From Bacteroidota bacterium (GTDB lineage: Bacteria > Bacteroidota > Bacteroidia > Bacteroidales > FEN-979): a stretch of DNA of 64,000 bases. The stretch lies in the NCBI GenBank assembly GCA_026391775.1, contig JAPLDK010000054.1, forward strand, positions 13,907 through 77,906, given 5' to 3'. This document shows, one piece after another, positions 1 to 37,775 of this stretch (its first letter is position 1; each line of letters starts with the position of its first letter). The notes beneath the pieces are model-generated. The model worked only from the letters and a program-made list of their open reading frames with translations, was not told the origin of the DNA and searched no databases. Made by a program: the position numbers and the translations under genes.

Positions 1-3000
1 TATAGTGAAGGAAGACAAGTCGGGAAAGCTGATTTATATCGGGCGTAAAGACCAGCAGGTTAAAATCAGAGGGTTCCGGATCGAGCTTTCAGAAATCGAA
101 CATGCCCTCCTTTCCGTTCCTTTTATCAGGCAGGCTATTGTGAAAGTTGTTGAAGACAGGCGAAACGGTAAGAGGTTGGTTGCCTATGTGGTATATCATG
201 AGAACAATTCCAGGCCGGTTAATGAATTGCGGAAAACACTGATGCGAGCATTGGCCGATTTCATGGTTCCTGAAGTTTTTGTCACGATGGAATCTCTGCC
301 TCAACTTGCCAATGGAAAAATTGACCGTAAATCATTGCCATTGCCGGGAATTCAAAGGCCTGACCTTGGCTACCCTGTTGTACCCCCCTCAACTGAGAAT
401 GAGAAAATGATGGTCCACATATGGGAAGAGGTTTTGGGGCTTGAAGGCTTAGGCACGGAGGATAACTTTTTTGATCTTGGCGGAAATTCATTAAAAGCCA
501 ATGCTATCGTGCTGGAGGTAAATTCGAGGACCGGGCTTGCCATTCAGATCAAAAGTATATTTGACTGTCTCACGCCCGGCAATCTGGCCGGGCATCCTGC
601 CTTTGCCATGGAAAACAGGAAAAGGGATGCAGCAAGGACAACCGTGCCCGTACAAGCCGAAGAGGATTTGAATGAAGACCAGTCATCTGATGGTGAGCCG
701 CGCGATATCCTGTATTCCGGCTTGTCAGAAAACCAGAAAGCATTGTGGTTCCTTCAAGAGGCCGAGCCCGGTCTTTCGGCCTATAATATTTTTTACAGTA
801 TTGCACTAAAAGGCGCATTGGATATAAGCTGTCTTGAAAAAGCCCTTCAGGAAATTACCAACAGACATGAATCTCTGAAAACAAAGTTTCCGACCGCCAA
901 AAAACAAACGGAGGAAATTACTACGGTTACAGATTGTAAAGTTTTGGAAATATTCCATTCAGGAGCGGAGAATCTTCCTTTATCAGAAGCCGATGCTCTG
1001 GAGCATGTCCGGAAAATTGCCACAGAACCATTTGACCTTGGATCGGGGCATCCATTCCGGTTTATTCTTTTTAAACTTGGCAATAATCAGCATCTTCTGG
1101 CATTTGTTGTACATCATATTGTTTTTGACGGTTTCTCATTCGAGGTTTTTTTGCAGGAGCTTTCGGTTTCTTACGACCATGCAAAGTCCGGCCTGAAACC
1201 TGGCCGACCTGACTCTGCATCTTCGTACACTCGGTTTTGCAGGGAAGAGAAGAAATACCTTGGCGGAGCTGATTATTCAGAGGACAGGGAATATTGGCAA
1301 AAACAGCTTTTGCATGTAACAACTTTCATTGAGATCCCTACCGATTTTGTACGACCTGAAACCTTTTCGCAAGAGGGAGGGCAGGTACGCAGAAAAATAA
1401 ATTCCCGGCTTAGGTCTGGGATCAAAGCTCAGAGCGATAAACTCGGAACAAGCATGTATATGACCTGCCTGGCTGCTTTTTCAATTCTCTTATACCGTCA
1501 TACAGGCCATAATGATTTTCTTATCGGAACTCCTGTCGCTAACCGGGTAAAAAAATCGTATCTCTCTGCAATAGGATATTTCGTCAATACTATATTATTT
1601 AGGGTAAAGATCGATCCCACGCTGTCCTTCAGTGACTGGGTGGCGACGGTTAAGGAGGCTATCCTCGAAAATCTTCCCCATTCGAGGTTCCCGTTCAGTC
1701 ATATGAACGAAGTTCTTAAAACAGATAGAATTCCGGGGATCAACCCGTTTTTTCAGATCATGTTTGCTTATCATGAAAACATTTGGGATTTTTCAACCCT
1801 GTCGGGTATTACGGGCAGTGCTGAGGAACAATTTTCAGGCAATTCCAAATTCGATATTTTTACTGAGATCTTCGACAATCATGAAGATGCGGAAATTGTC
1901 TTCACATTTTCAAGGAGACTGTACCAAAAAGAAACTATTGAGATCCTGCTCGATCATTTTATTCAACTTCTGGAGAATATCTGCCTTGCTCCCCAAACAA
2001 GGCTTAATGATCTCAGCCTTCTTTCCACCAGAGAGTTTAACAAGCTTATTTTTCAATGGAACCAGACCGCTTTTTCGCTGGATCCCAAAAGAACCTTAGT
2101 TGATCTGATAAATCTTCAGATCGAAAAAACTCCTGATCTGCCTGCGCTTGTTTCAAGGCAGGAAGTGATCTCATACCGGGAGATGGGTCATAAAACAGAT
2201 ATTATCACTGCAAATCTGCGACGTGCAGGAGTATATAGAGGGGTCCCTGTAGGAATTCATCTTGAAAACTCCCCGGCCATGGTCATGTGCATTATAGCTG
2301 TTTTCAAGGCAGGCGGTATATATATTCCCCTCGACCCGTATTATCCTGAGGAACGTCTCCGCTATGTCATTGAAAAGACCAGGATACGCTTCCTTGTTGT
2401 TGACCAGGAGAGGATAAACAGGAAGCAGGAATTATCGGAACAGATCATCCCTCTCAATGACCTTCTGGATGAATCGGCATTGCTCATGCCGGCAGTAGCA
2501 GAAGAACAAAACAGTTCGACCGACCTGGCATACATCATGTTCACTTCAGGTTCAACGGGGAATCCCAAAGGCGTGATGATCCGTCACGACAGCCTGATTA
2601 ATTTTTTAATCTGGATGAAAATGGAATTGAACGTTACGGACGGAGATACTTTTTTATCCACGACCTCTATAAATTTTGATATTTCATTTTGTGAGCTTTT
2701 CACTCCACTGATTAGCGGCGCCAGGCTGGTACTTGAAAAAAGAAGGGAACTGCAGGCTCCTGAAAAAGTGGAGGCCATTTTGAATGAGATGCAGGTGAAC
2801 ACGGTACAGTTCGTCCCCTCGGGGCTCAAGGCCTTATGCGATGCCGGTGTCCTGAAACGGGCCGGTTATCTTAAAAATATTATCTCGGGAGGAGAAAAAC
2901 TTTCAAGATCGCTGCAGGAACAGATTTTCCTGGATTTTGATGGCACCTTGATAAACCTCTATGGCCCGACTGAAGCCACGGTATATATGGCTTGCTGGCA

Positions 3001-3952
3001 TTGCCGCCGTAACAGCCCCCTCAGGATGGTTCCGATTGGTTTCCCTGTTTTCAACGCGTTCATGTATATCCTGAATGAAAACCTGGAACCGGTCCCGATA
3101 GGTGTGACCGGTGAGATTTATATCGGAGGATATGTTCTTGCAGATGGTTACTTCGAAGACCCGGATCAGACAACAACGCGGTTCCTTCCCGATCCTTTCA
3201 GGAAAGATGAAGGGAGTAAAATATACAGGACCGGCGACCTGGGCAGATATTTGTTTGACGGGGCCGTCGAATTCCTTGGCAGGACCGACCATCAGGTAAA
3301 AGTGAGGGGATTCCGGATCGAACTGGGTGAAGTTGAAACGATAATTCTTCGTTTCCCGGGGATCCGAAGAGTGTTTGTTAATGCCCGGGAACAAAAGGAG
3401 GAGGATGTCCGGTTGACTGCCTTTATTGTCCCTGGACCTGAGACAAAAATACAAGAGAATGAACTCAGGGACTTTTTACGTCTTCATTTACCGGCGTACA
3501 TGATTCCGGGAAATTTCATCATAGCGCCATCCATTCCTACTCTTCCAAACGGCAAGACGGATTTTAAGGCGCTAATGAATTTACGCCCGAGTGTGCCAAA
3601 AATCCCGGAATTTTTCCAACATCGGATGAATGAGACAGAGGCCCTGCTTTCAGGGATTTGGAAAGAGATACTTGATCATGAAGCCTTCACCCTACAGGAT
3701 AATTTCTTTGAAGTGGGAGGTCACTCATTACTTCTCGTAAAGATGAAAGACCTGATTGCGGAAAAAATCAACACTGAAGTCAGCATAGTCGATCTTTTTC
3801 ATTATCCGACGCTCCGGAGCCTTGCAGCATTCCTGCGCAAGGATAAGCCGGATCATTCCTATGGAGATATCGCAAAGAGGGTTGAAATGCGGAACAAGTT
3901 TATCAGGCAACAGATCAATAAACGAATTTTTCCCGATAACAATCATTCCTAA
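1..3952 (+). CDS. Non-ribosomal peptide synthetase, 5'-truncated by the window edge: (A-domain tail)-PCP-C-A-PCP
   Basis: The track ORF 5..3952 begins inside an adenylation domain: GRKDQQVKIRGFRIELSEIE is the A8 core and LANGKIDRK is A10. First carrier motif FFDLGGNSLKA (Ser codon 488-490). Condensation motif HHIVFDG (1112-1132). Second A domain: LAYIMFTSGSTGNPKGV (A3, from 2525), YRTGDLGRY (A7), GRTDHQVKVRGFRIELGEVE (A8), LPNGKTD (A10). Second carrier motif FFEVGGHSLLLV (Ser codon 3725-3727). Confidence 0.95.
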   Translation, partial: IVKEDKSGKLIYIGRKDQQVKIRGFRIELSEIEHALLSVPFIRQAIVKVVEDRRNGKRLVAYVVYHENNSRPVNELRKTLMRALADFMVPEVFVTMESLPQLANGKIDRKSLPLPGIQRPDLGYPVVPPSTENEKMMVHIWEEVLGLEGLGTEDNFFDLGGNSLKANAIVLEVNSRTGLAIQIKSIFDCLTPGNLAGHPAFAMENRKRDAARTTVPVQAEEDLNEDQSSDGEPRDILYSGLSENQKALWFLQEAEPGLSAYNIFYSIALKGALDISCLEKALQEITNRHESLKTKFPTAKKQTEEITTVTDCKVLEIFHSGAENLPLSEADALEHVRKIATEPFDLGSGHPFRFILFKLGNNQHLLAFVVHHIVFDGFSFEVFLQELSVSYDHAKSGLKPGRPDSASSYTRFCREEKKYLGGADYSEDREYWQKQLLHVTTFIEIPTDFVRPETFSQEGGQVRRKINSRLRSGIKAQSDKLGTSMYMTCLAAFSILLYRHTGHNDFLIGTPVANRVKKSYLSAIGYFVNTILFRVKIDPTLSFSDWVATVKEAILENLPHSRFPFSHMNEVLKTDRIPGINPFFQIMFAYHENIWDFSTLSGITGSAEEQFSGNSKFDIFTEIFDNHEDAEIVFTFSRRLYQKETIEILLDHFIQLLENICLAPQTRLNDLSLLSTREFNKLIFQWNQTAFSLDPKRTLVDLINLQIEKTPDLPALVSRQEVISYREMGHKTDIITANLRRAGVYRGVPVGIHLENSPAMVMCIIAVFKAGGIYIPLDPYYPEERLRYVIEKTRIRFLVVDQERINRKQELSEQIIPLNDLLDESALLMPAVAEEQNSSTDLAYIMFTSGSTGNPKGVMIRHDSLINFLIWMKMELNVTDGDTFLSTTSINFDISFCELFTPLISGARLVLEKRRELQAPEKVEAILNEMQVNTVQFVPSGLKALCDAGVLKRAGYLKNIISGGEKLSRSLQEQIFLDFDGTLINLYGPTEATVYMACWHCRRNSPLRMVPIGFPVFNAFMYILNENLEPVPIGVTGEIYIGGYVLADGYFEDPDQTTTRFLPDPFRKDEGSKIYRTGDLGRYLFDGAVEFLGRTDHQVKVRGFRIELGEVETIILRFPGIRRVFVNAREQKEEDVRLTAFIVPGPETKIQENELRDFLRLHLPAYMIPGNFIIAPSIPTLPNGKTDFKALMNLRPSVPKIPEFFQHRMNETEALLSGIWKEILDHEAFTLQDNFFEVGGHSLLLVKMKDLIAEKINTEVSIVDLFHYPTLRSLAAFLRKDKPDHSYGDIAKRVEMRNKFIRQQINKRIFPDNNHS

Positions 3953-3963
3953 CACTATATACT

Positions 3964-6900
3964 ATGCAATCAGATGAAATTCAGAGCCTGGACGGTAAAG
4001 TTGCAATTGTCGGAATGGCCTGCCGCCTGCCCGGTGCAAAAAATATTTATGAATACTGGAAGAACCTGTTGGATGGATTGGAAACACTAAGCACTTTTAC
4101 AGATGAGGATCTGATTGCATCCGGGGTTGACCCTGGGGTTTTCAAACAACCGAATTATATCAGGAGCCGCGGTATTATTAACGGAGCGGAGTATTTCGAT
4201 GCAGAGTTCTTCGGGTACACTCCCCGGGAGGCTGAATTGATGGATCCCCAGCAGAGGATTTTTCTGGAATGTGCATGGCATGCTCTGGAAGATGCAGGAT
4301 GTGATCCCTACAATACAAAAGAACGGATTGGCGTATTTGGTGGCACAGGCACACCACTGCATCTTGTTTCGACCATGGGAAATAGCTGGGTAAGGAAAAA
4401 TGCAAGCGGAGCATCCATCGTTACCAGCAACGACAAAGACTATGTTACTACGAGAGTATCATATAAGCTTAACCTCACGGGCCCCAGTGTGAATGTCCAG
4501 TGCGCCTGTTCCACCTCAATGGTGGCCGTGGTATTGGGGATTAACAGCCTGATGAATTACCAAAGTGACCTTATCATAGCAGGGGGGGCCACTATTGAAA
4601 TCCCCGAGAAGCATGGATATATTTACCAGGCCGGAGGAATGGAATCGGCTGACGGGCATTGCCGGACGTTTGACAAGGATGCCAACGGAACTGTTTTCAG
4701 CCGGGGGTGTGGAGTTGTCATTTTGAAACGCCTGGAAGATGCCATCCGTGATCACAATACCATTTATGCCGTGATCCTAGGCGGCGCCATTAATAATGAT
4801 GGGAACAAGAAAATTGGGTTTACTGCTCCTTCGGTTGAAGGGCAGGTAGAGGTAATCACCGAAGCTATTGCCTTATCCGAAATATCCGCCGACACCATTA
4901 CGTATGTCGAGGCTCATGGAACGGCAACACCCATTGGGGATCCCATTGAGGTCACCTCGCTTTCGGAGGCATTCGGGCAGTATTCAAACCGTAAACAGTA
5001 TTGCGCAATCGGATCAGTGAAAACCAATATCGGCCATACCGACATCGCGTCGGGTGCAGCGAGTCTGATAAAAACCGCTCTCTGTCTTAAGAACAGGCAA
5101 ATCCCTGCCTCCCTGCATTTCAACGAGGCAAACCCGAAGATTGACTTTCAGAACAGCCCATTCTTTGTCAATACCCAACTCAGAAACTGGCAGCCCGAAA
5201 ATGGGATGCCTCTGCGTGCTCTTGTGAATGCTTTCGGTGTAGGCGGGACCAATGCCTGTATTATTCTTGAGGAAGCTCCGGCTGGCGGCACCGAACTTAA
5301 TAAACTTCCCTGTGACCTCATCCTGGTCTCGGGTCGCAGCCATAATGCAGTCATTGCAGCCCAGGCAGAGATCAAAGCCTTTCTCGAAGCATATCCTGAC
5401 ATTGACCCCCATGCAATAGCATTTACTTCGCGTTATGGCAGGCACCATTTCCTTAACGGGGCAGCCATACCATTCCGGAACAGGGAAGAACTGCTTTCCG
5501 GGCTTGGCACAAAGAACGCCACAACCATCAAATCAGTGGAGAAAAGACCGGTAGTTTTTATGTTCCCGGGCCAGGGAAATCAGTATATCCGTATGGGTTT
5601 GCCTTTGTATGAAACCCAGGAGGTGTTTAGAAAGACCATTGATGAATGTGCAGAGATACTGAAAGAAGAGCTGGGGTTTGACATAAGAGACATATTATTC
5701 CCTTCGGCTGCCGATGAAGAAACTGCTGCCCTGAAGATTAATGAAACATATATCACACAACCGGCGCTTTTCATGGTAAGCTATGCCCAGGCCCAGCTAC
5801 TGATTTCCCTGGGAATTAAGCCAGACATGCTTATAGGTCACAGTGTTGGTGAATATGTGGCAGCCACAATCTCAGGAGTTTTTTCTCTGAAAGATGCCCT
5901 GAAAGCTGTTGCCCGCAGGGGCCGACTTGTTCAGGATTTGCCCATAGGAGCCATGCTGGCAATACTGCTTACCGAAGAACAGCTGGGACCAATGCTTCCA
6001 AAAGGGCTTGAAATTGCAGTCCTGAACAGCCCCGGATTATGTGTTGTATCAGGCCCTGTGGAACTTATTGACAGTTTCGCAGAAGAACTGAACAAAACCA
6101 AAACCTTCAATAAAAAAATTCCGACTTCACACGCATTTCATTCGGCAATGATGGAACCTGCTTTGCCTGCTTTCGCAAAATTTTTCAAAGAAATAAACCT
6201 TTCTCCTCCGACCATTCCAATTGCCTCTACTGTAACCGGACAATGGTTAAGCCCGGAGGAATCAACCAATCCCGATTTCTGGGTAAACCATGTTCGGAAA
6301 ACCGTTCGCTTTGCAGATGCCGCCAAATTATGTCTTGATGCAGCTCCTGCCGTTTTTATAGAATCAGGCCCGGGTCAATCCCTTGAATCTGCTGTAAAAC
6401 GCCAGCTTGTAAAAGATAATCCTCATGGTGTAATCAGCACAATCCCTGTAGTGGATAGCAACACCGATCCATTAATTTACTTTTACTCCGCACTGGGTCA
6501 GATCTGGGCCAATGGCGATTATTTTAAATGGAATCTGTTTGATAAAACCAAACGAAAACTGGTCTCTTATCCGGGTTATCCCTTCGAGCGCAAACCCTAT
6601 ATCATCGATTTTTCGCATAAGGACGGGGTCAAAGCCAAATCTGAAAACAAAAAGAAATCTGATATTAACCAATGGTTCTATATACCCGGCTGGAAAAGGT
6701 CTGCTCCACCTCAGCGGATACCGGTCAATGGCATGGCTATTGCGGACCTGGCTTCGGAGATGGACTGCTGGTTGCTCTTTTCTGATGAACTGGGCCTGTG
6801 CAGGGAAATTGCCAATGAACTTAATGCTGGAGGTTTAAGCTGCTTCACTGTAAAAACAGGTCTGGACTTTGCCCGTGAGAAGGAAGGATTTACCATTGAC

Positions 6901-9546
6901 CCCGGCCGAAAGGAACATTATATTAAACTTATAAAGTCACTTAAATCTGAAAACTGGAATCCTGCCAATGTAATTTTTGCCTGGAATTACAGTAAGGCAC
7001 CGGTAACAGGCCATCTGGCACCCATTTATTCAGAGCAGCTTGCGGCAGCTCATTTTTACAGCCCTTTGTATCTTGAGCAGGCGCTCATCAGCGAAGGTTT
7101 CGTGAAAAACCAGTTCCTGCTGTTCGTGGTCAACCATCTTTTTGATGTCACTGGTGAGGAAGTTTTAGCACCTGAAAAGGCTTTGTGTGCGGGTGCGGCA
7201 CGTGTGATCGGGCAGGAACATCCGGGGATCATTTCCCGGATGGTCGATCTCCCCGCTTTTTTGGAACCCGATCAATTGAAAGAACTGGCATCTACCGTGA
7301 TCAGTGAGTGCCGGCTGGCCTCTGATGACACGATTGTTGCTTACCGTCATGGTTATCGCTGGGTTGAAGATTACACGCAGGTTTGCCCCGAAAGCGGGGG
7401 GCTTTCGGAGAAATCTTTGACTGATCATGGAGTTTACTTTATTACAGGTGGCATAAGCGGGGTTGGAATGGAACTTGCAAAATTTATAGCCCGTACGGTA
7501 AAATCCACCCTGGTGCTGACTCACAGGTCACCTCTCCCTCAACGCATCGAATGGCCTGATATTGCTAAATCGGCTGGACGTGATGACCGCGATGCCATGC
7601 GCGTACGCGATGTCATGGAGTTGGAATCGCTGGGTGCAACTGTGATCCTTGCTCAACTGGATGCCTCTGATTATGAAGGGACAAAGAACCTTGTGCATAA
7701 AATTGAAAAGGAACACGGGCCAATCAGGGGGGTACTGCATTCTGCCGGCATGCCGGGTGCAGGCGTCATTGCTTTGAAAGAAAAAGAACTGGCTGACCTT
7801 GTACTGAAGTCCAAATTCCACGGAACATTGATATTGCATGATATTTTCAGGGGACGAAAGCTGGATTTCTTCTTCCTCTTCTCCTCAGTCTCCTCCATTT
7901 TTGGTGAAGCCGCAAGGATTGATTATTGCGGATCCAATTCGTTCATGGATTCCTTTGCACAATACCGTAAAAGGCTAATGGGCGATGGCACGCTTTCCAT
8001 CAACTGGGGGCAATGGGGAGTAGTTGGAATGGCAGCCAGCTGGGAAAAAGCAAAAGCTGAAAAGAAACAGCTTTTACAATCGGGAAAGCTACTGAAACAA
8101 ACGGATATCAGGAACGGAATAAGGCTGGAATTACGATCTTCAGATAATGATCAGGATATTTATCAGGTCGACATCGATCCCGAACGTGACTGGGTGTTAA
8201 ACTCTCATCTTCTTTCGGGGAAGCCGGCTTTTCTGGGGATATCCACACTGGAGATTCTCAACCAATATGTCAACATTAAAAATCCGGCTGGTCATCTTGA
8301 AGTCCTGAACTTTTCATTCGTGACACCACTCATTTATGATGCAGGAATCAGCAGGAATATACGTTTGCTGGTAAAGCCTTCAGGCGATGCATTGTCATTC
8401 CGTATCAGCAGTAAAGAGATAAAAGGCGAATCTGCGCGGGAAGTTTGGATGGATCACGTTAAAGGGGAATTCAATATATCTTCAGGTTTGTCTTCTTTAA
8501 GCATCAACATTCAGGAACTGTCAAAGCGAATCGGAGGAACTACCGACAACATACCTCATTTCCTTGAATTACTTAACGAAGAAAACAGATCCGTTTTAAA
8601 ATATGGTAACCGTTGGGATTGCAAGAGATCCGCTCAATCAAACGGAAAGGAGTTTATCATCGAAGTCAAACTCAGGGATGAGTTTCTTGACGATCTGAAA
8701 TACTTCACCCTGCATCCGGCTATGCTTGATGTAGCTACATCAAGCTGTATTCAATATGTTGACATGAATCTGTATCTCCCGTACTCATATAAAAATGTTA
8801 AAGTTCACCTTCCTCTGCCAGCACATTTCTGGTGCCACCTTAAAATCAGCGAAGACTGGAAAGCAGAGGATGAAGAATTGAAATTTGAAGTAGAGATCGC
8901 AGATAAAGAGAACCGCCTTCTATTGAGCATTGGGCAGGTTTCCTTCCGTCGCCTGAAGCAGAATTTCGGCAGTTTTAAAAATTCGTCTTCCAAAGGTTCA
9001 TCGCCGAAACCGGTCCAGGAGACCAGCTACTTCGAAGGAAAGAACGACATACTCCCCGATGAGGGTGTTGAAGTGTTTAAGCGCCTTCTCAACTTTAAGC
9101 AGTTCCCACAACTTGTGATCAGTACAACCAACCTGAACCAGGACATTCTTGAGGAAAGGCCTTCGTACAAAAAATGGGAAAAACAGGAAAAAGAAGAAGA
9201 TAAGCAAGAAAGTGCCTCCACCTATGAGCGGCCCCAGCTATCGACTCCTTTTGAGGCTCCGTCCAACGAAATCGAAAATGCGGTAGCTGGTATTTGGAAA
9301 GGTATACTTGGGATCGAAAAAATAGGGGTAAATGACACGTTTATGGAACTTGGAGGGAATTCACTCCTTGCAATTCAAACTATCTCTAATATTGCAGATG
9401 AGTTTGATCTGGAACTCCAGCCGAATGTATTTTTTGAGAACCCTACAATTAAAGGATTATCGGATCGGATTGTGGAAATGATCATTGCAATGAAAGGATC
9501 CGAAAATATTGAAGCCATGCTGAAGGAGATGGAAAATGAACAATGA
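3964..9546 (+). CDS. Type I polyketide synthase module, motif order KS-AT-(psiKR)KR-DH-ACP
   Basis: KS: DPQQR, VQCACSTSMVAV (Cys codon about 4507), EAHGTATPIGDPIE, GSVKTNIGHTDIASG. AT: GHSVGEYVAA (Ser codon 5842-5844) and HAFHS. Post-AT linker YPGYPFERKPY. KR: YFITGGISGVGMELA (from about 7444) and SSVSS...YCGSN. DH-like double hotdog after the KR: NSHLLSGKPAFLG (His codon about 8206) and LHPAMLDVATS. ACP: FMELGGNSLLAIQ (Ser codon 9361-9363). Confidence 0.95.
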   Translation: MQSDEIQSLDGKVAIVGMACRLPGAKNIYEYWKNLLDGLETLSTFTDEDLIASGVDPGVFKQPNYIRSRGIINGAEYFDAEFFGYTPREAELMDPQQRIFLECAWHALEDAGCDPYNTKERIGVFGGTGTPLHLVSTMGNSWVRKNASGASIVTSNDKDYVTTRVSYKLNLTGPSVNVQCACSTSMVAVVLGINSLMNYQSDLIIAGGATIEIPEKHGYIYQAGGMESADGHCRTFDKDANGTVFSRGCGVVILKRLEDAIRDHNTIYAVILGGAINNDGNKKIGFTAPSVEGQVEVITEAIALSEISADTITYVEAHGTATPIGDPIEVTSLSEAFGQYSNRKQYCAIGSVKTNIGHTDIASGAASLIKTALCLKNRQIPASLHFNEANPKIDFQNSPFFVNTQLRNWQPENGMPLRALVNAFGVGGTNACIILEEAPAGGTELNKLPCDLILVSGRSHNAVIAAQAEIKAFLEAYPDIDPHAIAFTSRYGRHHFLNGAAIPFRNREELLSGLGTKNATTIKSVEKRPVVFMFPGQGNQYIRMGLPLYETQEVFRKTIDECAEILKEELGFDIRDILFPSAADEETAALKINETYITQPALFMVSYAQAQLLISLGIKPDMLIGHSVGEYVAATISGVFSLKDALKAVARRGRLVQDLPIGAMLAILLTEEQLGPMLPKGLEIAVLNSPGLCVVSGPVELIDSFAEELNKTKTFNKKIPTSHAFHSAMMEPALPAFAKFFKEINLSPPTIPIASTVTGQWLSPEESTNPDFWVNHVRKTVRFADAAKLCLDAAPAVFIESGPGQSLESAVKRQLVKDNPHGVISTIPVVDSNTDPLIYFYSALGQIWANGDYFKWNLFDKTKRKLVSYPGYPFERKPYIIDFSHKDGVKAKSENKKKSDINQWFYIPGWKRSAPPQRIPVNGMAIADLASEMDCWLLFSDELGLCREIANELNAGGLSCFTVKTGLDFAREKEGFTIDPGRKEHYIKLIKSLKSENWNPANVIFAWNYSKAPVTGHLAPIYSEQLAAAHFYSPLYLEQALISEGFVKNQFLLFVVNHLFDVTGEEVLAPEKALCAGAARVIGQEHPGIISRMVDLPAFLEPDQLKELASTVISECRLASDDTIVAYRHGYRWVEDYTQVCPESGGLSEKSLTDHGVYFITGGISGVGMELAKFIARTVKSTLVLTHRSPLPQRIEWPDIAKSAGRDDRDAMRVRDVMELESLGATVILAQLDASDYEGTKNLVHKIEKEHGPIRGVLHSAGMPGAGVIALKEKELADLVLKSKFHGTLILHDIFRGRKLDFFFLFSSVSSIFGEAARIDYCGSNSFMDSFAQYRKRLMGDGTLSINWGQWGVVGMAASWEKAKAEKKQLLQSGKLLKQTDIRNGIRLELRSSDNDQDIYQVDIDPERDWVLNSHLLSGKPAFLGISTLEILNQYVNIKNPAGHLEVLNFSFVTPLIYDAGISRNIRLLVKPSGDALSFRISSKEIKGESAREVWMDHVKGEFNISSGLSSLSINIQELSKRIGGTTDNIPHFLELLNEENRSVLKYGNRWDCKRSAQSNGKEFIIEVKLRDEFLDDLKYFTLHPAMLDVATSSCIQYVDMNLYLPYSYKNVKVHLPLPAHFWCHLKISEDWKAEDEELKFEVEIADKENRLLLSIGQVSFRRLKQNFGSFKNSSSKGSSPKPVQETSYFEGKNDILPDEGVEVFKRLLNFKQFPQLVISTTNLNQDILEERPSYKKWEKQEKEEDKQESASTYERPQLSTPFEAPSNEIENAVAGIWKGILGIEKIGVNDTFMELGGNSLLAIQTISNIADEFDLELQPNVFFENPTIKGLSDRIVEMIIAMKGSENIEAMLKEMENEQ

Positions 9547-10681: not shown

Positions 10682-10693
10682 TGGTTTAAAATA

Positions 10694-13600
10694 ATGGCAA
10701 AGGAGGAAAAATCATTAAATGAACGTCTTGCGGGATTAAGCCCCGGTCAGCTGAAAGCCATGCTGCACAAGGGGAGGGATGAGTCAACCCCCAGGATAGG
10801 AAAACCTCCTAAAATGGAACGGAATTCCGAAGGGATCTATCCCTTGTCAAAGGCACAGGAAAGGATGTGGTTCCTGCACAACCTCTCCGAGGGGGAAGCA
10901 ATTTATAACAACCCTGTTGCCCTGAGGATATCTGCCGTATTTCCCCTGAATATCGATATTCTTATTAAGAGCCTCGAAATCCTTACTGAACGGCATGAGA
11001 TACTTCGCACAACCTTCTTTGTGAAGGAAGGGAAGCCGGTTCAGCAGGTCCATCTTTCGGGAAAAACCGGGATTCGCTATGAGGATCTCCGGCATCTGCC
11101 ATTAAACGAAAGGGAAATCAGAGCCATGGAGGAAGCCCTGCAACACGGGAAAACTGCCATTCAACTTGACAAGCTTCCGTTGCTCAGGTTCAAAGTGCTC
11201 CATCTGCGCGATCTGGAATACATATTGCTGATCAATCCGCACCATATTATTTCCGATGGCTGGTCAAATGCACTGTTTGCGAAGGAACTATCGATGACTT
11301 ATGCCGCCCTTGAAAGTAAAGAACCTTCCCCTTTCCATGTTCCGGAGTACCAGTATATCGATTTTGTGAATTGGGAGAAGGAATGGATGGGCTCCCCTGC
11401 TTGCAAGGAACAACTTGAATTCTGGAAAGGTCAGCTGGCGGATTTACCGGAACCTCTTCGTCTCCCCCTTGACTTTCCAAGGCCCGCAATCATGTCGCAT
11501 ATAGGAAGAAAGGAGGTTAACTCCATTCATGCAACAGAGACAGAAAAGATCAGGCAATTCTGTAAACATGAAAATCTTACGCTGTTTCAAATGCTCTTTG
11601 GTGCTTTCGGACTGCTGATGTCGAAATACAGCGGTCAGCAGGAGATCATGATCGGTGTCCCTGTTGCCCGGCGCAACCAGCTTTCGTTCCAGCAAACCAT
11701 GGGGTTATTTATCAATACATTGCCGCTGAGAGTGAAAGTAAATGAAAAAGAAACTGCTATCGCATTTCTGAAGCAGATAAAAACATATTGCCAGCAGGCA
11801 TTCATGCGCCAGGAACTTCCGTTTGAGAAACTGATCGAAGAGGTTAATCCCGACCGGAGCCTGAGTACAAACCCTGTTTTCCAGGTTCATTTTGTTCATC
11901 AGAACATCCCGTCGCTTTACAGCGTGAAAGGCTTATCGGTTAAACCCGAGAACATTGATTATTCATTTTCCAAATTCGATTTGAATTTCTGGGTTGAGGA
12001 GGCGAACCAGGAACTTATCATTTCGGTAACCTTTCCCAGCGATCTCTTCCTTCAACAGACGATTCAGAAGCTTCTAGTCAATTACAAGATTTTACTGACT
12101 TCTCTTATCAGCCATCCAGAAGAACAATGCAGCAGGCTGGTATATTTCCCCGAGAACGAAGGTTCGCAACGGACAGGTAGCACGATCGTTTATTCTGAGC
12201 CCGGCACTACTTTGCCTGCAACCTGGTTGGGTGAATTCAAGGCCCAGGTCAGGTTAACCCCTGGTAACATGGCGGTGCGTGACATTCATCATCAAATCAC
12301 CTACCGGGATCTCGAAATAAGTTCTGATCACCTTGCAAATTTGCTTGCCAAACATGGTGTTGTGAAGAGAAACCTGGTGGGTTTGCTTCTTCCCCGCAAT
12401 GCATCACTCATCATATCGATACTTGGAATATTCAAAGCAGGTGCTGCCTATGTTCCCCTGGATATGAATATCCCTGAGGAGCGAATGAACTTTATCGTGG
12501 GAGATTCCGGTCTGAAACTGATTATCAGTACGGAGGAGCTTTCTCCGGCAGCAGCAAAGACAGGAATTCCGGTTCTTTTGTTCAGTGGGATGATGACTGC
12601 ACAGGAGGGTATCGGGCATATGAAAGAGGCAGATTCATCCGGATCGTTCCCTGGGCAGGAACTCCCCGGTCCCGATGACCTGGCCTATGTTATCTATACT
12701 TCAGGTACCACCGGAACTCCCAAAGGGGTTTGCATTGCATCGAACCAGCTTCTTAATTATTCTAAAGCCATTTGGCAACGGATAAATATGAAGGCAGGCG
12801 ATTCCTTTGCTACCATTTCATCCATCACGGCCGACCTGGGAAATACCATGATATTCCCGCCACTGATCCATGGAGGTGAAGTCGTGATTATTCCCGAAAA
12901 CCATACCACCGATGCATCTCTGCTGGCCGACTGGGTTGGTCATTGGCCAGTCGATTGCCTTAAAATTGTTCCTTCCCACCTTGTAAGTTTGCTCCATTCA
13001 TCCAGGGCCGAAAACATATTGCCCATGAAACTACTCATGCTTGGAGGTGAAAAATGCACTCCTGAGATTGTCAGGCGAGTAAGGGACATCGCTCCGGCAC
13101 TCAGGATCATCAACCATTATGGCCCAACTGAAGCAACGATCGGTGCATTGACACTTGAAATTCCTTTTGATATTACAGGCGGGAATTTCGTGATTCCGAT
13201 CGGGTTCCCATTGAATAATACATCGGTTTATATCCTCGATCAGAACCGTCGTCTGCTCCCGAAAGGTATTCCCGGAGAAATCGTTCTCAGCGGAAAGAAT
13301 ATTGCCAAGGGATACCTGAACCAGCCACAACTGAGCAGTGAAAAGTTCGCTGATGACCCTTTCAGGGCAGGTGAACGGATATACTGTACCGGCGACCTTG
13401 GAAAGATGAACGAAGATGGAGCGGTGGTTTTCCTGGGGCGCAGCGACCACCAGGTGAAAATCAGGGGCTACCGGGTTGAATCCAGGGAAATTGAATATGT
13501 ACTGAACAGTTTTCCTTCCATTGAACAGGCTGCCGTACTTGTTCCTGAAAATGTTTCTTCGGTAAATTCAGTGCATGCTGTCATTCGTTTGAAACAGGGC

Positions 13601-14860
13601 ATTGCTTATGATGAAAATGCACTCAGGACATGGCTTTCACTTCATCTTCCTGCTTACATGATCCCCTCGGCTTTGCATATCGTGGAGCGATTTCCACTCA
13701 CTTCCAACGGAAAAACAGATTTAAAGGAATTGCACCGGATGATCGGAAACATCGGGGATGTAAAGAAATTACCTGCCCCACCCCGCGACCTCACCGAACT
13801 CAGGCTTGTCAATATTTTCAGGGAGATACTGAAACAGGAAGAGGTAGGGATCTGTGATGGTTTTTTTGATCTGGGCGGACATTCTCTTCTTGCCATCCAA
13901 TTGTTTGCCGCAATTGAGTTGGAATTTCATATTCACCTCGCGCTGGCTACCTTGTTTGAGCGGGGGAGCGTAGTATTGCTGGCTGATCTTATCCGCAAAT
14001 CAATCGGAATGGAGCAGCCCACTTCCCTGGTTTCTATCCGGCCCGGGTCAGGAAAAAAACAAGTGTACCTTGTACATCCCGCCGGTGGTAATGTGCTATG
14101 CTATTTTGAACTTGCCAGGGAACTTGGGAAAGAGTATTCTGTTTATGGGTTGCAAGCGACCGGCTTGTATGGGAAAAAGGTTGATACCGTAGGCGACATG
14201 GCTTGTTTCTACCTGGAAGAGATCAGTTTGCCTGACTGTAAAGATGATGTGATTTTTGCAGGATGGTCGATGGGAGCCCTGATCGCCTTTGAGATGGCCA
14301 GGCAAGTGGGGGAAAGATCAGGAGAGAATCCCAGGCTGATGATCATTGATCAGCTCGCTCCATTTGAAGAATCCGGCGGTAGGGAAAATAAACAAATTGA
14401 TCCCGTTGACCGGATGCTGATTTTTGCCGGTAAAGTGGCACATCTGACCGGGCGTTCGCTTGTGATCAGCGCTGACAACCTGAGAGGGAAAACTTCGGAA
14501 GAACAATCCGAAGTCTTTCTTAATGAGTTTAAGTCGGTTAATCTGGTCCCATCTGATATGAGAATCACTGATTTTCACGGATATCTGGAACTGATGATCC
14601 ATCATAATGAGATCACTTCTGCCTGTAGTCCGGGCTCCTTCGATGGAAAAACATTGCTAATCCGGGCCATGGATGCTTTGCTCCCTCACGATGGCCAAAG
14701 CGAAATTTCAGTCCGAACGGCTGATCTGGACTGGGGCCGTTGGATCAAAAAAAATCTTGAGATTGCAAATATTCCGGGCAATCATGTTTCCATTATAGCT
14801 CAACCCTGCGTTAAAGAGATTGCGCTTGCCTTAATGCAATGGGTGAACCCCGGTTTATAA
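10694..14860 (+). CDS. Terminal NRPS module C-A-PCP-TE
   Basis: C domain HHIISDGWS (from 11240). A domain: LAYVIYTSGTTGTPKGV, NHYGPTEATIGA, YCTGDLGKM, GRSDHQVKIRGYRVESREIE, TSNGKTD. PCP: FFDLGGHSLLAIQ. Thioesterase: VYLVHPAGGNV and the GWSMGALIA nucleophile elbow. Confidence 0.95.
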   Translation: MAKEEKSLNERLAGLSPGQLKAMLHKGRDESTPRIGKPPKMERNSEGIYPLSKAQERMWFLHNLSEGEAIYNNPVALRISAVFPLNIDILIKSLEILTERHEILRTTFFVKEGKPVQQVHLSGKTGIRYEDLRHLPLNEREIRAMEEALQHGKTAIQLDKLPLLRFKVLHLRDLEYILLINPHHIISDGWSNALFAKELSMTYAALESKEPSPFHVPEYQYIDFVNWEKEWMGSPACKEQLEFWKGQLADLPEPLRLPLDFPRPAIMSHIGRKEVNSIHATETEKIRQFCKHENLTLFQMLFGAFGLLMSKYSGQQEIMIGVPVARRNQLSFQQTMGLFINTLPLRVKVNEKETAIAFLKQIKTYCQQAFMRQELPFEKLIEEVNPDRSLSTNPVFQVHFVHQNIPSLYSVKGLSVKPENIDYSFSKFDLNFWVEEANQELIISVTFPSDLFLQQTIQKLLVNYKILLTSLISHPEEQCSRLVYFPENEGSQRTGSTIVYSEPGTTLPATWLGEFKAQVRLTPGNMAVRDIHHQITYRDLEISSDHLANLLAKHGVVKRNLVGLLLPRNASLIISILGIFKAGAAYVPLDMNIPEERMNFIVGDSGLKLIISTEELSPAAAKTGIPVLLFSGMMTAQEGIGHMKEADSSGSFPGQELPGPDDLAYVIYTSGTTGTPKGVCIASNQLLNYSKAIWQRINMKAGDSFATISSITADLGNTMIFPPLIHGGEVVIIPENHTTDASLLADWVGHWPVDCLKIVPSHLVSLLHSSRAENILPMKLLMLGGEKCTPEIVRRVRDIAPALRIINHYGPTEATIGALTLEIPFDITGGNFVIPIGFPLNNTSVYILDQNRRLLPKGIPGEIVLSGKNIAKGYLNQPQLSSEKFADDPFRAGERIYCTGDLGKMNEDGAVVFLGRSDHQVKIRGYRVESREIEYVLNSFPSIEQAAVLVPENVSSVNSVHAVIRLKQGIAYDENALRTWLSLHLPAYMIPSALHIVERFPLTSNGKTDLKELHRMIGNIGDVKKLPAPPRDLTELRLVNIFREILKQEEVGICDGFFDLGGHSLLAIQLFAAIELEFHIHLALATLFERGSVVLLADLIRKSIGMEQPTSLVSIRPGSGKKQVYLVHPAGGNVLCYFELARELGKEYSVYGLQATGLYGKKVDTVGDMACFYLEEISLPDCKDDVIFAGWSMGALIAFEMARQVGERSGENPRLMIIDQLAPFEESGGRENKQIDPVDRMLIFAGKVAHLTGRSLVISADNLRGKTSEEQSEVFLNEFKSVNLVPSDMRITDFHGYLELMIHHNEITSACSPGSFDGKTLLIRAMDALLPHDGQSEISVRTADLDWGRWIKKNLEIANIPGNHVSIIAQPCVKEIALALMQWVNPGL

Positions 14861-15636
14861 AAGGAGATCATATCAAAGAGGACCTTGTGGAAAAACTAAA
14901 AGAAATTTTTCAATCATTAATCCGCTTTTCATCAGGAAATGATGAATTGGCGGCAGGCCTGGTCCTTTGTCCCTCACTCAGCAACGAAGAACTTAACGTC
15001 AGAACCCGCATGCTGCTTCATCAGGAAGAAATTAATACCGGTGGCGGTTATACTTCAGATATCCGCAGAAGATCATTTCTGAACGGAAGGATAGCCGGAA
15101 AGATGGCTATTAATACAGTCTTCCCGGATATTCCATCAGCAACCTGCCGGATCATTACCGGTTCCATCGGGAAACCAGTAATAGGTGATCTTCCACGGCC
15201 TTACGGCATCTCCATTGCCCATAATGAATCATGGAATGCAGGTTTATGTTTTCCCTTATCCGTTCCAATGGGCATAGATGTAGAAACCATCACAGAGAAA
15301 AACCGAACCATCATAGCCTCCATACTTAGCTCTCGTGAAAAGGATCTATGCAGCAGTGAAGGAGATCCTCTTGAGCTTACTCACCTCCTCTGGACCGCGA
15401 AGGAGGCCGCAGGAAAAGCCATCGGCCTCGGATTTCGCGTGCCAACGGCATGGTATGAGATTGATTTTGTTGAAACCCTGAAAACAGAACCGCAACGGAT
15501 ACACCAATGCCGTTTTAAAAACCTATTGGTGTTTACGGCACTTTCGGTTGAAACTCCCGGGGGGATGCTTTCAATCGCATTCCCGGCAGAAAATAATCTT
15601 AGTCAAACGATGATCCGTTTATTGCAATTAACATGA
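14839..15636 (+). CDS. 4'-phosphopantetheinyl transferase, Sfp type
   Basis: It overlaps the NRPS stop by 22 nt. PPTase motifs: GKPVIGD, ISIAHNES, GIDVE, and WTAKEAAGKAIG (the W/F-x-x-KE-A/S-x-x-K motif). The start codon is not certain. Confidence 0.8.
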   Translation: MGEPRFIKGDHIKEDLVEKLKEIFQSLIRFSSGNDELAAGLVLCPSLSNEELNVRTRMLLHQEEINTGGGYTSDIRRRSFLNGRIAGKMAINTVFPDIPSATCRIITGSIGKPVIGDLPRPYGISIAHNESWNAGLCFPLSVPMGIDVETITEKNRTIIASILSSREKDLCSSEGDPLELTHLLWTAKEAAGKAIGLGFRVPTAWYEIDFVETLKTEPQRIHQCRFKNLLVFTALSVETPGGMLSIAFPAENNLSQTMIRLLQLT

Positions 15637-15708
15637 ACCGTATAAACAACCCTGACAAATTCAATCTGGATCCATTCAAAGATGGAATTAAACTTAAAAT
15701 AAAAAATC

Positions 15709-16791
15709 ATGAAAAATCAATTTGACGAAAGAATGTCATTAATAACAGATGAACAATTATATGAAACAACGGAGAAGTTAGTTGAAGATATTATTGATCC
15801 AAGCCAGGATGTATTTATAAGAGTTCAACCAGAGAAACTTTTTGAAAGCCCGGTAAATTTAAAAATTGCAAACTACAGATATCCTGATTACAAGAAATAT
15901 GTTCTTACAGATTGCCATAATTTACCCAATCGAATATCGGATTTGGGGAAAATTATATTTTCACTTGATGAAATACCCATTGAAGAAATCCCCAATTCTC
16001 TGATATTTATTTTTTATACTTGCGATAGTGACGCATTGCCTGTTTTAAAAAAGATCAAAGAGCATGGAGGGAAGTACATGCCTCATCAGGATTCCTCTAA
16101 AACGGATTATCGATTTGTTAACAGATCAGCATTCAATGCGATTCGAAAAACATGGGAAAAAGCTGACCGTATTTCTCATATGACAATGATTGTTCACGAA
16201 AATTTATGCGAAGCGCTCGAATTAACTAAAAACATTCCCGGAGATTTTGTTGAGATCGGAGTCTTTCTTGGTGGATCATCATTGACCGCTCTTAATTTCT
16301 TGCATGAACAATCGCAAGTAAGCAAAGTTCCATCACGAAAGGCATGGCTTATGGATACTTTTGACGGATTCAATTATAAAGAGGCAAAAAATAGTCAGGA
16401 CATTATATGGCAAGGTACCCATAAATTATTCGGCATCGGTGAGACAAAGAAATATATTACTGATACCCTGAAAGATACTGGAGCTCCTTTTGAACTTATT
16501 GAAGGGAATATTTGCTCAGATGAATTACCGGAAGCAATAGATAGAATTTCGGTTGCAAATATTGATGTTGACATGTATGACCCAACGCTCTCTGCTTTAA
16601 ATAAATGCGCTGTAAGATTAGCTGAAGGTGGTATTATTATTGCAGAAGACCCGACTTCGACACCTCAGTTATATGGTGCCTATTTGGCAATGAATGAATT
16701 TTTAGAAAGTTCGCTTGGAAAATCCTTTACCCCAATATTTAAGAAAGGTCAATATTTCTTATTAAAAAACAATAAACCGACACATGATTGA
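15709..16791 (+). CDS. TylF/MycF-like SAM-dependent (macrocin-type) O-methyltransferase family protein
   Basis: The C-terminal half carries GDFVEIGVFLGGSS (SAM glycine motif), DTFDGF, and ANIDVDMYDPTLSALNKCAVRLAEGGIIIAED, which fits the TylF family pattern. The N-terminal ~170 aa are unassigned. The gene lies in a clearly AT-rich segment. Confidence 0.7.
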   Translation: MKNQFDERMSLITDEQLYETTEKLVEDIIDPSQDVFIRVQPEKLFESPVNLKIANYRYPDYKKYVLTDCHNLPNRISDLGKIIFSLDEIPIEEIPNSLIFIFYTCDSDALPVLKKIKEHGGKYMPHQDSSKTDYRFVNRSAFNAIRKTWEKADRISHMTMIVHENLCEALELTKNIPGDFVEIGVFLGGSSLTALNFLHEQSQVSKVPSRKAWLMDTFDGFNYKEAKNSQDIIWQGTHKLFGIGETKKYITDTLKDTGAPFELIEGNICSDELPEAIDRISVANIDVDMYDPTLSALNKCAVRLAEGGIIIAEDPTSTPQLYGAYLAMNEFLESSLGKSFTPIFKKGQYFLLKNNKPTHD

Positions 16792-18049
16792 ATCAAAATC
16801 TAACCACATTTTACACGCTAATCTCAGCATCGACATTGCTGAAATCGTCAATAAATTCTCAACACCACTAATTATCTATAGCGTCATTGAACTAAATAAT
16901 AGAATAGTTGAACTTCAGGCAGCCCTGCCAGTTGAGTCACGTTTATTATATTCGGTAAAAGCTAATCCTAATCCATTTGTCTTAAATCTATTTAATCAAG
17001 CAGGTTTTGGTTTTGAAGTAGCATCTGTTGGCGAATTACAACACCTTATTAAATCAAAAATTAATTCTGATAGAATTGTGTTAGGAGGTCCAATAAAAAG
17101 TAAAGAAGCAATATTATCAGGTATACAGAACCATATCCTATCTTACAATGTCGAATCTGAACAAGATTTACAAAACATTGCAAGTGCATCAAATCAACGA
17201 TTAAATATATCCCTAAGGATTAATCCGGATTTCTCTAATCGTAATTCTTTGTTAAAAATGGGGGGTGTTTCTTCTCAATTTGGTATAGACGAAAATAATG
17301 TAATACCCTTAATCAGAAAATACAAGAATGAAGTAAATATTAATGGACTTTTTATGTTTAATGGTTCGCAGTTTTTTGATGCTCAGGATATTATACAAAA
17401 CACCTCATTTTTGATAGAATTTGCGGAAAAAAATAAAGACGAATTCAATCAATTGGATTTCCTGGATTTCGGAGGAGGATTTGGAGTAGCAGAAACAGCA
17501 GACCAATCAGGATTAAACATGAATATATTAAAAACCGGTTTAGCTGATTTGTTTAAAAGTAAAAAACAATTCCTCGATAGAGTTAAATATAAATTCTTTG
17601 AAAGTGGTAGATATTTAACTGCAACATCAGCTATTTTAGTAAGTAAGGTCTTAGATATTAAATACTCAAAAGGTAAAAAATATATAATTTTAGATACTGG
17701 CATTAATCATCTTGGAATAAGACAGTTACATTATAGGACACAACGATCATTCATAAGTACTTTAAAAGAAAACGAACATTATTCACCAGCAATTCTTACA
17801 GGTGCAACATGTACACCGATAGATATAATTCTAAACGAAGTTGACTTCCCGAATGTTTCAGTTGACGATTTAATTCTGATACATAATGTTGGCGCATACA
17901 CGTCTACACTTTCGCCTTATAATTTTTGTGGATTTACTTACCCCGCTGAGGTTGCAGTCGATACAAACGGATATGTTTTACTGATCAGGGAGCGGGGTGA
18001 TATTGAAAACTCTTGTGGATTAGGATATAAAGTATACGGAGAAGAGTAG
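16784..18049 (+). CDS. Fold-type III PLP-dependent decarboxylase (Orn/DAP/Arg decarboxylase family)
   Basis: LLYSVKANPNP (PLP-lysine motif), FEVASVGEL, DFLDFGGGFG (phosphate-binding glycines), and HNVGAYTSTLSPYNF near the C-terminus. It overlaps the methyltransferase stop by 8 nt (ATGATTGA). Confidence 0.85.
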   Translation: MIESKSNHILHANLSIDIAEIVNKFSTPLIIYSVIELNNRIVELQAALPVESRLLYSVKANPNPFVLNLFNQAGFGFEVASVGELQHLIKSKINSDRIVLGGPIKSKEAILSGIQNHILSYNVESEQDLQNIASASNQRLNISLRINPDFSNRNSLLKMGGVSSQFGIDENNVIPLIRKYKNEVNINGLFMFNGSQFFDAQDIIQNTSFLIEFAEKNKDEFNQLDFLDFGGGFGVAETADQSGLNMNILKTGLADLFKSKKQFLDRVKYKFFESGRYLTATSAILVSKVLDIKYSKGKKYIILDTGINHLGIRQLHYRTQRSFISTLKENEHYSPAILTGATCTPIDIILNEVDFPNVSVDDLILIHNVGAYTSTLSPYNFCGFTYPAEVAVDTNGYVLLIRERGDIENSCGLGYKVYGEE

Positions 18050-18065
18050 CTCCTGTTTTAATATC

Positions 18066-18284
18066 TTATCCCTGGCGCCCACGCATGCTGTACCTCAGCC
18101 TGATCTCAGCTTCTTTGCTTTTATCTGAGATAAATATCACGGTTCTTCCACCGTCAAGCACGATAGGGAATTTATCAAGGACTGACCCGGTTGCCAGTTT
18201 GACATGGGGTACATTGAGCCGATGGTTTGCCAAATTCATTCGGTTTGCCAAGACATCGTTTTTCCTGTTTCGGTTGTTTTTCAA
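18066..18284 (-). CDS. Small hypothetical protein (72 aa)
   Basis: This is the only non-nested ORF between the decarboxylase and the csp terminator. I recognise no motif and found no clear promoter box. The competing + strand ORF 18085..18366 looks like low-complexity hydrophobic sequence. Confidence 0.3.
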   Translation of the reverse strand: MKNNRNRKNDVLANRMNLANHRLNVPHVKLATGSVLDKFPIVLDGGRTVIFISDKSKEAEIRLRYSMRGRQG

Positions 18285-18431: not shown

Positions 18432-18460
18432 AGATCTGTAAATCTAGTAAACTAACTTAG

Positions 18461-18652: not shown

Positions 18653-18678
18653 AATACTATAATTTTTAATAATTTGTG

Positions 18679-33588: not shown

Positions 33589-33591
33589 GGA

Positions 33592-37757: not shown

Positions 37758-37775
37758 TTTCTTCGTTTAGCAGCC

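Follow-up and report, generated by a model that had tools for sequence, protein, structure and literature searches.

Gene content and layout of the locus

We analyzed a 64-kb stretch of a Bacteroidota bacterium genome (contig JAPLDK010000054.1; hereafter the window), in which bases 1–18049 of the plus strand carry a hybrid gene cluster of nonribosomal peptide synthetases (NRPSs) and a polyketide synthase (PKS). The cluster is made up of seven tightly packed plus-strand open reading frames (ORFs) at 2..3952, 3964..9546, 9536..10681, 10694..14860, 14839..15636, 15709..16791 and 16784..18049, the first of which runs off the window edge and is open at its 5′ end. From base 2 to base 15636, Pfam domains were found in the order of an adenylation domain tail (A1)–peptidyl carrier protein (PCP)–condensation domain (C)–A2–PCP in NRPS 1; ketosynthase (KS)–acyltransferase (AT)–ketoreductase (KR)–dehydratase (DH)–acyl carrier protein (ACP) in the PKS; an MDR enoylreductase (ER); C–A3–PCP–thioesterase (TE) in NRPS 2; and an Sfp-type 4′-phosphopantetheinyl transferase (PPTase). 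The window holds the 3′ five-sixths of this three-module assembly line, together with the PPTase and two accessory genes. The gene and domain content, the integrity of the motifs and the conservation of the cluster in relatives are plain from the comparisons described below.

An initial annotation made from the sequence letters had proposed a colinear NRPS-PKS-NRPS layout with a TE and a dedicated PPTase, which the Pfam domains confirmed. Its spacings at the first four ORF junctions (+11, −11, +12 and −22 nt) were reproduced exactly from the ORFs, and all of the short strings that it quoted (GHSVGE, HAFH, FDISFC, TVQFVPSG, LINLYGPTE, ADLGNT, CLKIVPSH and IINHYGPTE) were found. Of the span of 1–18049 that it described, the layout held as far as the PPTase gene, while the accessory methyltransferase and decarboxylase genes at 15709–18049 had been left undescribed. 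Beyond its content, the present analysis adds a loading adenylation domain that lacks Asp235, the predicted conversion of Gly to a 4-aminobutanoyl unit, the accessory genes, a dedicated exporter and a distribution across phyla.

Conservation of the cluster across phyla

In the protein database, approximately 27 PKS orthologues with identities of 68–86% were found, all from uncultured Bacteroidota. In a tblastn comparison of the window with orthologue contigs and with 31 loci taken from genomes of species representatives, we defined as the core the genes for an ABC transporter, an outer-membrane efflux protein (Pfam OEP), NRPS 1, PKS, ER, NRPS 2 and PPTase. This core was syntenic in about 15 metagenome-assembled genomes (MAGs) of uncultured Bacteroidales and Lentimicrobiaceae with PKSs 70–86% identical to that of the window (86% and 84% in the two closest relatives), several of which have sample names that indicate lakes. 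It was also syntenic at 43–48% PKS identity in a Flavobacteriaceae chromosome, in Pseudotenacibaculum sp. and Asprobacillus argus, and in Cytophagales, Desulfobulbaceae, Hyphomicrobiales and alphaproteobacterial MAGs. A Saprospiraceae contig carries the ABC-OEP-NRPS 1-PKS part before the contig ends, with 61% identity over the PKS part that it contains. A variant in Vibrio sinus (L032) has MFS and HlyD export genes and no ER at the usual position, a different MDR reductase being located further downstream.

Two observations on individual genomes were made in the course of this survey. The MAG D14_bin-1408 contains two divergent cluster copies (L015 and L031), whose PKSs are 80% and 70% identical to that of the window; the two may be paralogues within a single genome, or the bin may be mixed. 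In another locus (L002; ena:ERZ25039535 contig_9416, 4316–18110), a decayed copy of the cluster was found, in which NRPS 1 is fragmented, the ER is cut to 176 aa and NRPS 2 is missing, with an IS66-family transposase downstream.

NRPS 1 and its loading module

Based on Pfam and on alignment to full-length orthologues, the first ORF (2..3952) encodes 1316 of the ~1700 aa of NRPS 1. It begins with the C-terminal subdomain of A1, which carries the A8–A10 motifs (2..330; AMP-binding_C, aa 31–106), and continues with PCP1 (398..595; GGNSL with Ser163), C1 (722..2047; HHIVFDG), A2 (2117..3586) and PCP2 (3647..3835; PP-binding, aa 1216–1278; GGHSL). The best PDB relatives of C1 were the C domains of Txo1/Txo2 and TycC.

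The initial annotation had placed at least one more module upstream of base 1, and an assembly line of such length would be consistent with the fact that the window opens inside an A domain while the 90,983-bp source contig extends upstream. The exact PKS protein of the window is not on record and the upstream content was read from orthologue contigs. Against a longer line, the truncated protein aligned to residues 391–1706 of the full-length orthologues, so that 390 residues (1.17 kb) of the A domain are missing from the window, and in every full-length relative NRPS 1 is a protein of 1687–1706 aa with the organization A-PCP-C-A-PCP. In all of them, including the two closest, it begins with this A domain and follows the transporter genes, which encode a 509-aa TolC-like outer-membrane efflux protein (Pfam OEP), a 975-aa ABC transporter and a 724-aa C39-peptidase-type ABC transporter. 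Since the NRPS 1 of full-length relatives has this organization and is preceded by transporter genes, the truncated A-PCP would be the loading module with no further module before it, and we regard a longer line as extremely unlikely.

The PKS module and the stand-alone enoylreductase

The second gene (3964..9546) encodes a PKS module of 1860 aa with the organization KS-AT-ψKR/KR-DH-ACP according to Pfam, NCBIfam and invariant catalytic residues. Its KS (3997..5121) carries the motifs CACSTS, EAHGTAT and NIGHT, with Cys182, His318 and His358 as catalytic residues, and its AT (5554..6450) carries GHSVGE at residues 625–630 and HAFHS at residues 723–727. Next come a structural ψKR and a catalytic KR (6670..8016; GGISGVG, Lys1284, Ser1307, Tyr1321 and Asn1325; KR prefix NF047870, PF21394 and PF08659), a DH (8161..8973; His1415, Gly1419, Pro1421 and Asp1589; Pfam PS-DH) and an ACP (9280..9471; GGNSL with Ser1800), after which the protein closes with an acidic tail. 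The catalytic residues of the PKS, including the KS triad and both AT motifs, are invariant in 21 homologues with identities of 48–86%. The pair of GHSVGE and HAFH is the pattern of malonyl-type ATs, and the malonyl assignment made initially was upheld.

In canonical reducing modules, the DH (and ER) is located between AT and KR. Here, the KR (aa 1156–1351) precedes the PS-DH match (aa 1545–1666) and the ER is a separate ORF. The region following the KR is a genuine dehydratase; its PDB matches were the PksJ DH (8qk4, E 2.5e-8), 5hqw and the CurK DH, and its motif reads H-x3-G-x-P rather than H-x3-G-x4-P. The ER gene (9536..10681), identified by its Pfam zinc-type dehydrogenase domain and by synteny, encodes a stand-alone MDR-type protein with the N-terminal sequence L-x-x-L-S-P-E-K-K-x-x-L-L. 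Its best NCBIfam match was the ER region of Pks2 (1414–1728), and it resembles the cis-acting ER domains of bacterial PKSs. The ER and NRPS 2 share an N-terminal motif, L-x-x-L-S-P-[ED]-x-x-x-x-L-L, which is conserved in relatives both close and distant (9536–9650 and 10694–10800 in the window; also L001, L020, L021 and L030), and the PKS has an acidic tail at its end. This N-terminal segment and the acidic tail may form a docking pair, through which the ER would be recruited in trans like the next module.

The order of KR before DH is that of the iterative polyunsaturated fatty acid (PUFA; PfaA) and enediyne synthases. The PKS of the window could accordingly be iterative, or could leave the ER unused, and would then produce a longer reduced chain or an α,β-unsaturated (vinylogous) residue where a saturated C2 extension would otherwise be expected. 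A trans-acting reductase is also part of the PUFA/enediyne layout, PfaA was among the NCBIfam matches with 355 bits, and the V. sinus variant does without an ER at this position. On the other hand, the PfaA match was far under its cut-off (355 versus 1010 bits) and covered the KS only, and the module has a single, PCP-like ACP that passes its chain to a C domain, with NRPS modules on both sides. The ER, for its part, shares its N-terminal motif with NRPS 2 and its position between PKS and NRPS 2 is kept in every syntenic locus. We took a single extension round as the default because the PfaA model scored so far below its cut-off and only one ACP is present, and we consider an iterative PKS or an idle ER to be quite unlikely.

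NRPS 2, thioesterase and PPTase

NRPS 2 (10694..14860) was resolved by Pfam into C2 (10829..12160; HHIISDG), A3 (12236..13714), PCP3 (13802..13993; GGHSL) and a TE (14060..14803; GWSMG). Throughout the NRPS modules, HHxxxDG was found in the C domains, core motifs with Lys517 and YGPTE in the A domains, GGxS in the PCPs and GxSxG in the TE. Inactive or missing core residues, which the initial annotation had singled out as a point to be checked, were not seen, as the motifs of the KS, AT, KR, DH, carrier, C and TE domains are all intact. The 265-aa Sfp-type PPTase (14839..15636) was assigned by PF01648 (48.1 bits; cut-off, 25). All of the named NCBIfam PPTase models remained below their cut-offs, with weak matches to Npt/AusB, and the position of the gene after NRPS 2 is conserved in the relatives.

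Adenylation domain codes

Specificity codes were read by aligning the A domains to a GrsA-PheA segment, from which DAWTIAAIC is obtained with canonical numbering. The by-eye codes given previously were correct in their beginnings (DICQI and DLTK), but that of A2 had skipped Gly301, so that its full form is DICQIGLVYK, with Gln at position 278, and that of A3 is DLTKMGHIGK. Close relatives share the A2 code as DI[LIMF]QIGLVYK. The Gly code of the PAX synthetase is DILQIGLIWK (PMC10634486), with which the commonest form among close relatives agrees at 8 of 10 positions and the window at 7, the substitutions being conservative. Glycine is the predicted substrate of A2. We did not use the best PDB match of A2 in support of Gly, as LgrA came first only through summing two domains and the best single stretch was from Txo2.

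For A3, nearly the whole family has the code DLTK[MVI]GHIGK, and DLTKVGHVGK or DLTKVGH-type codes favor Asp (PMC12283262). Aspartate is accordingly predicted as the last residue, in line with the Asp/Asn-type code tentatively suggested at first for the terminal A domain.

The substrate pocket of A1 lies outside the window, and its code in the relatives is AA[TS][CY][YF]SLA[NC]K (for example, AATCYSLANK-like). Asp235 is the residue that binds the α-amino group of the substrate in the PheA structure and in the Stachelhaus code. Ala takes its place in all 20 of the orthologues that could be scored, and in HMMER alignments to both LgrA A domains this Ala lies opposite the Asp of the FD motif. The other core motifs of A1 are intact in the relatives, and the domain should therefore be active; given the change of Asp235 to Ala, its starter, denoted X, would not be activated as an ordinary α-amino acid. 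Four approaches to the substrate of A1 gave no assignment. The PDB search matched only generic amino-acid A domains, the homologue search matched only unnamed fragments, the literature search with the code strings and with albicidin p-aminobenzoic acid codes found nothing, and the C-domain subtype in the PDB comparison was generic LCL-like and did not discriminate.

Accessory methyltransferase and decarboxylase genes

Downstream of the PPTase gene, with no terminator-like site in between, are a gene for a TylF/MycF/NovP-like methyltransferase (15709..16791; PF05711), whose solved relatives NovP and MycF are O-methyltransferases, and a gene for a PLP-dependent decarboxylase of the alanine-racemase fold (16784..18049; Orn/DAP/Arg-type by Pfam), the two overlapping by 8 nt. 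The best solved relative of the decarboxylase was BtrK (7ru7/2j66; E 3.5e-47, 164.6 bits over the full length), diaminopimelate (DAP) decarboxylases scored lower with at most 131 bits, and the PLP-binding Lys is conserved within YSVKAN. BtrK, CtaF and FlvO decarboxylate carrier-bound Glu or Asp that is tethered by its side-chain carboxyl group, giving 4-aminobutanoate (GABA) or β-Ala (PMC11350588). If the starter were loaded through a non-α carboxyl group, this would likewise account for the missing Asp235 of A1, and the likeness to BtrK points in the same direction.

One or both of these genes adjoin the PPTase gene in six relatives (L007, L009, L016, L036, L037 and L038). The combination of TylF-like gene and decarboxylase gene alone was found in the window and in L036, where the TylF-like gene has the same position, whereas L037 and L038 have an O-methyltransferase gene, a decarboxylase gene and a TylF-like gene, all after the PPTase gene. 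A TylF-like gene is also found in L016, and the decarboxylase gene adjoins the cluster in L007, L009, L036, L037 and L038. COMT-like O-methyltransferase genes (Methyltransf_2) were found in the distant loci L013, L020, L021, L022 and L030 and in the close loci L007, L008 and L009. That the TylF-like gene is a non-orthologous replacement of the COMT-like gene was considered and rejected, as L037 and L038 hold both methyltransferases in addition to the decarboxylase. A common 201-aa protein with no Pfam match is encoded after the PPTase gene in L013, L018, L022 and L030 (~21324–21929).

The genes beyond the accessory pair differ between genomes, being GH3/BipA, PfkB/PKD or Pirin genes, and because these flanking housekeeping genes change while the accessory genes stay, we assigned the latter to the cluster. 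In the window, the cluster ends at 18049, since the genes that follow are unrelated. These are a small minus-strand gene (18403–18660) that by eye reads as a cold-shock protein gene and has a strong terminator-like hairpin at 18430–18403, followed by genes for a GH3 glycosidase, BipA and a hybrid histidine kinase and then by unrelated metabolic genes. We also considered a siderophore, on the assumption of a receptor gene downstream, but abandoned this idea because the 749-aa downstream gene encodes this GH3 glycosidase and not a TonB-dependent receptor.

Alternatively, the two genes could be a passenger cassette of low GC content outside of the pathway, in which case the cluster would end at the PPTase gene (15636). 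The GC contents of the methyltransferase and decarboxylase genes are 0.35 and 0.32, compared with 0.46 for the cluster, and across the window (15709–18049) and L036 (21721–24162) the accessory genes range from 0.30 to 0.35. Their products share 96% and 89% identity, respectively, with the L036 proteins, where the core proteins that flank them are only 68–85% identical, and the pair may be a recently exchanged or moved cassette. Both genes are moreover absent within ~4 kb downstream of the cluster in L001, L005, L006, L012, L014, L017, L019, L024 and L028, and more distant TylF homologues lie in polysaccharide or unrelated loci. What speaks for a role in the pathway is the placement of one or both genes directly after the PPTase gene in the window and six relatives despite different next neighbors, the shared strand and uninterrupted run from the PPTase gene, and the fact that the nearest solved relative of the decarboxylase acts on a carrier-protein-bound substrate. 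We therefore consider a passenger cassette to be an unlikely explanation, albeit the most serious of the alternatives.

MccD is the enzyme of microcin C biosynthesis that transfers a 3-amino-3-carboxypropyl group from S-adenosylmethionine. A second explanation for the two genes is a comparable aminopropylation pair, in which the methyltransferase-fold protein would attach this group to the product and the decarboxylase would then turn it into an aminopropyl group. The two genes overlap and travel together, and MccE, which decarboxylates the 3-amino-3-carboxypropyl group, falls together with BtrK and the DAP decarboxylases into one clade of the alanine-racemase-fold decarboxylases (PMC7857480), although MccD and MccE were compared by description only. 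The Cytophagales locus L020 has a nicotianamine-synthase-like gene after its PPTase gene (19532–20341). This reading is nonetheless very unlikely, as the decarboxylase gene of L009 occurs with a COMT-like methyltransferase gene and no TylF gene in the locus, in L037 the decarboxylase and TylF genes lie ~450 nt apart on different strands, and the TylF-family enzymes with solved structures are O-methyltransferases.

Proposed product and biosynthesis

Taking these features together, we propose that the cluster encodes a three-module assembly line for an exported X-(4-aminobutanoyl)-Asp that is tailored by the accessory enzymes, a reading that we hold to be probable, though by no means assured. 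We infer the substrate identities, the single extension round, the succession of steps and the functions of the accessory pair. In the proposed pathway, A1 would load the starter X, not as an α-amino acid, onto PCP1, and C1 would join X to the Gly-like residue loaded by A2. The KS would then extend X-Gly with malonate from the cis AT, and the KR, the DH and the docked stand-alone ER would fully reduce the β-carbon, turning Gly into a 4-aminobutanoyl unit. That the set of KR, DH and ER should reduce the C2 unit fully, and so lead to a γ-amino-acid-like residue, had been proposed initially and was upheld. C2 would add Asp from A3, and the TE would release X-(4-aminobutanoyl)-Asp, which the two ABC transporters and the TolC-like protein encoded directly upstream in the relatives would export. 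In the sub-lineage of the window, the TylF-like methyltransferase and the BtrK-like decarboxylase would tailor the molecule, so that the predicted pseudo-tripeptide is probably methylated and possibly decarboxylated. As an unproven but favored candidate, X would be an acidic amino acid tethered by its side-chain carboxyl group, from which the decarboxylase would remove the free α-carboxyl group as BtrK, CtaF and FlvO do.

Several observations weigh against this proposal. The codes were obtained by alignment to the GrsA segment and not from a formal predictor such as NRPSpredictor2, SANDPUMA or antiSMASH, and the A2 code of the window agrees with the Gly code at just 7 of 10 positions, while A2 of distant relatives reads DIWQ[FV]xLIxK or, in L020, DVWHFSLVDK, a code for Ser. 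In the A1 pocket (A, A, T, C/Y, Y/F, S, L, A, N) there is no charged residue to hold an amino-acid head group, which weakens the idea of a side-chain-tethered Asp or Glu. Most relatives have no decarboxylase gene, which is confined to a sub-lineage, yet their A1 code is identical. The accessory genes differ from the cluster in GC content and in their identity to L036, as described above. With regard to the PKS, the order of KR before DH makes more than one extension round conceivable, and the KR has neither the B-type LDD nor the A-type Trp motif but LDA and Phe instead (by eye; aa 1230–1325, nt ~7650–7940), so that its stereochemical class is unreadable from the usual motifs.

Comparison with known systems

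No curated NCBIfam equivalog among EntF, MxcG, AusA, SolG, Pks2, Pks13, PfaA, NbtC and MbtD was matched at its cut-off (for example, EntF with 492 versus 2400 bits and PfaA as given above). The PKS homologues in the protein database were named in generic terms only, and literature searches with the codes, the domain string including KS-AT-KR-DH-ACP and the host names found no characterized counterpart. The cluster belongs to an uncharacterized family present in several phyla, with a small peptide-polyketide hybrid as its predicted product and an enzyme logic that is familiar.

Extension of an aminoacyl- or peptidyl-PCP by a KS-AT with reductive domains, followed by transfer or release, is likewise found in tubulysin TubF and in syringolin/glidobactin SylD/GlbC. 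In those modules the DH (and ER) lies between AT and KR on one polypeptide, whereas the window has AT-ψKR-KR-DH-ACP and a separate ER. PfaA and PKSE share with the window the DH after the KR, and the fungal LovB-LovC pair shares the MDR-type ER acting in trans. Compared with PfaA and PKSE, the PKS of the window has no tandem ACPs and no fused PPTase, is located inside an NRPS line and is served by an ER that resembles the cis-ER of Pks2.

The closest published analogue in logic, as judged from its published description, was the carenaemin (cpl) locus of Collimonas arenae Cal35, an NRPS-NRPS-PKS-NRPS system in which the second amino acid also receives a single ketide unit ahead of the third amino acid, and whose A-domain code DIWQFGLILK is similar to the A2 code DIWQFGLIYK of distant family members (PMC8313283). 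Unlike the window, cplA starts with a KS/AT and an aminotransferase, the ketide is reduced to -CH2-CHOH- only, and the locus has an E domain and a Leu-like third residue (PMC8313283).

The butirosin (BtrI/BtrJ/BtrK), closthioamide (CtaD/E/F) and fluvirucin (FlvN/L/O) systems resemble the cluster in having a BtrK-like decarboxylase, and side-chain tethering of the kind they use would fit an A1 without Asp235. The BtrI/CtaD/FlvN-type systems employ a stand-alone ACP and a loader of the ATP-grasp or VinN type, in contrast to the window, where the candidate carrier is the in-line PCP1 and the loader is a canonical NRPS A domain.

Other features of the window

The cold-shock-like gene sits between the cluster and the GH3 gene. 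Further downstream, a long minus-strand block at 25557–43347 encodes an FtsX-type ABC permease and ATPase, a GT4 glycosyltransferase, four PQQ-like β-propeller proteins, an NHL-repeat protein and NuoF-like/2Fe-2S/4Fe-4S oxidoreductase subunits, an unusual combination.

Implications

The cluster combines three enzymological oddities, namely a DH after the KR, a stand-alone ER with a docking-like N-terminus, and a loading A domain without Asp235 near a BtrK-like decarboxylase gene. These do not overturn the current view of assembly lines. The predicted secreted molecule is not known to have been isolated, and the value of the cluster is that of a genome-mining and natural-product lead. Three of the relatives, Asprobacillus argus S356, Pseudotenacibaculum sp. 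MALMAid0570 and, as a variant, Vibrio sinus S4M6, are not MAGs but named strains, which should be accessible for product isolation.

In a broader and decidedly speculative proposal, which we regard as improbable, the family would make a new class of small exported ω-amino-acid pseudo-peptides, such as β-Ala/GABA-GABA-Asp or γ-Glu-GABA-Asp. An acidic residue would be loaded by its side chain through the A domain without Asp235, BtrK-like decarboxylation would take place on the in-line PCP in this sub-lineage, and the ER would be recruited in trans through an NRPS 2-type docking element. The spread of the family over anoxic-water Bacteroidales, marine Flavobacteriia, Desulfobulbaceae and Alphaproteobacteria would suggest a common ecological role, as a metallophore or a signal. 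Independently of this proposal, the retention of the core cluster with its own exporter across several phyla of aquatic and often anoxic bacteria points to a useful secreted small molecule.

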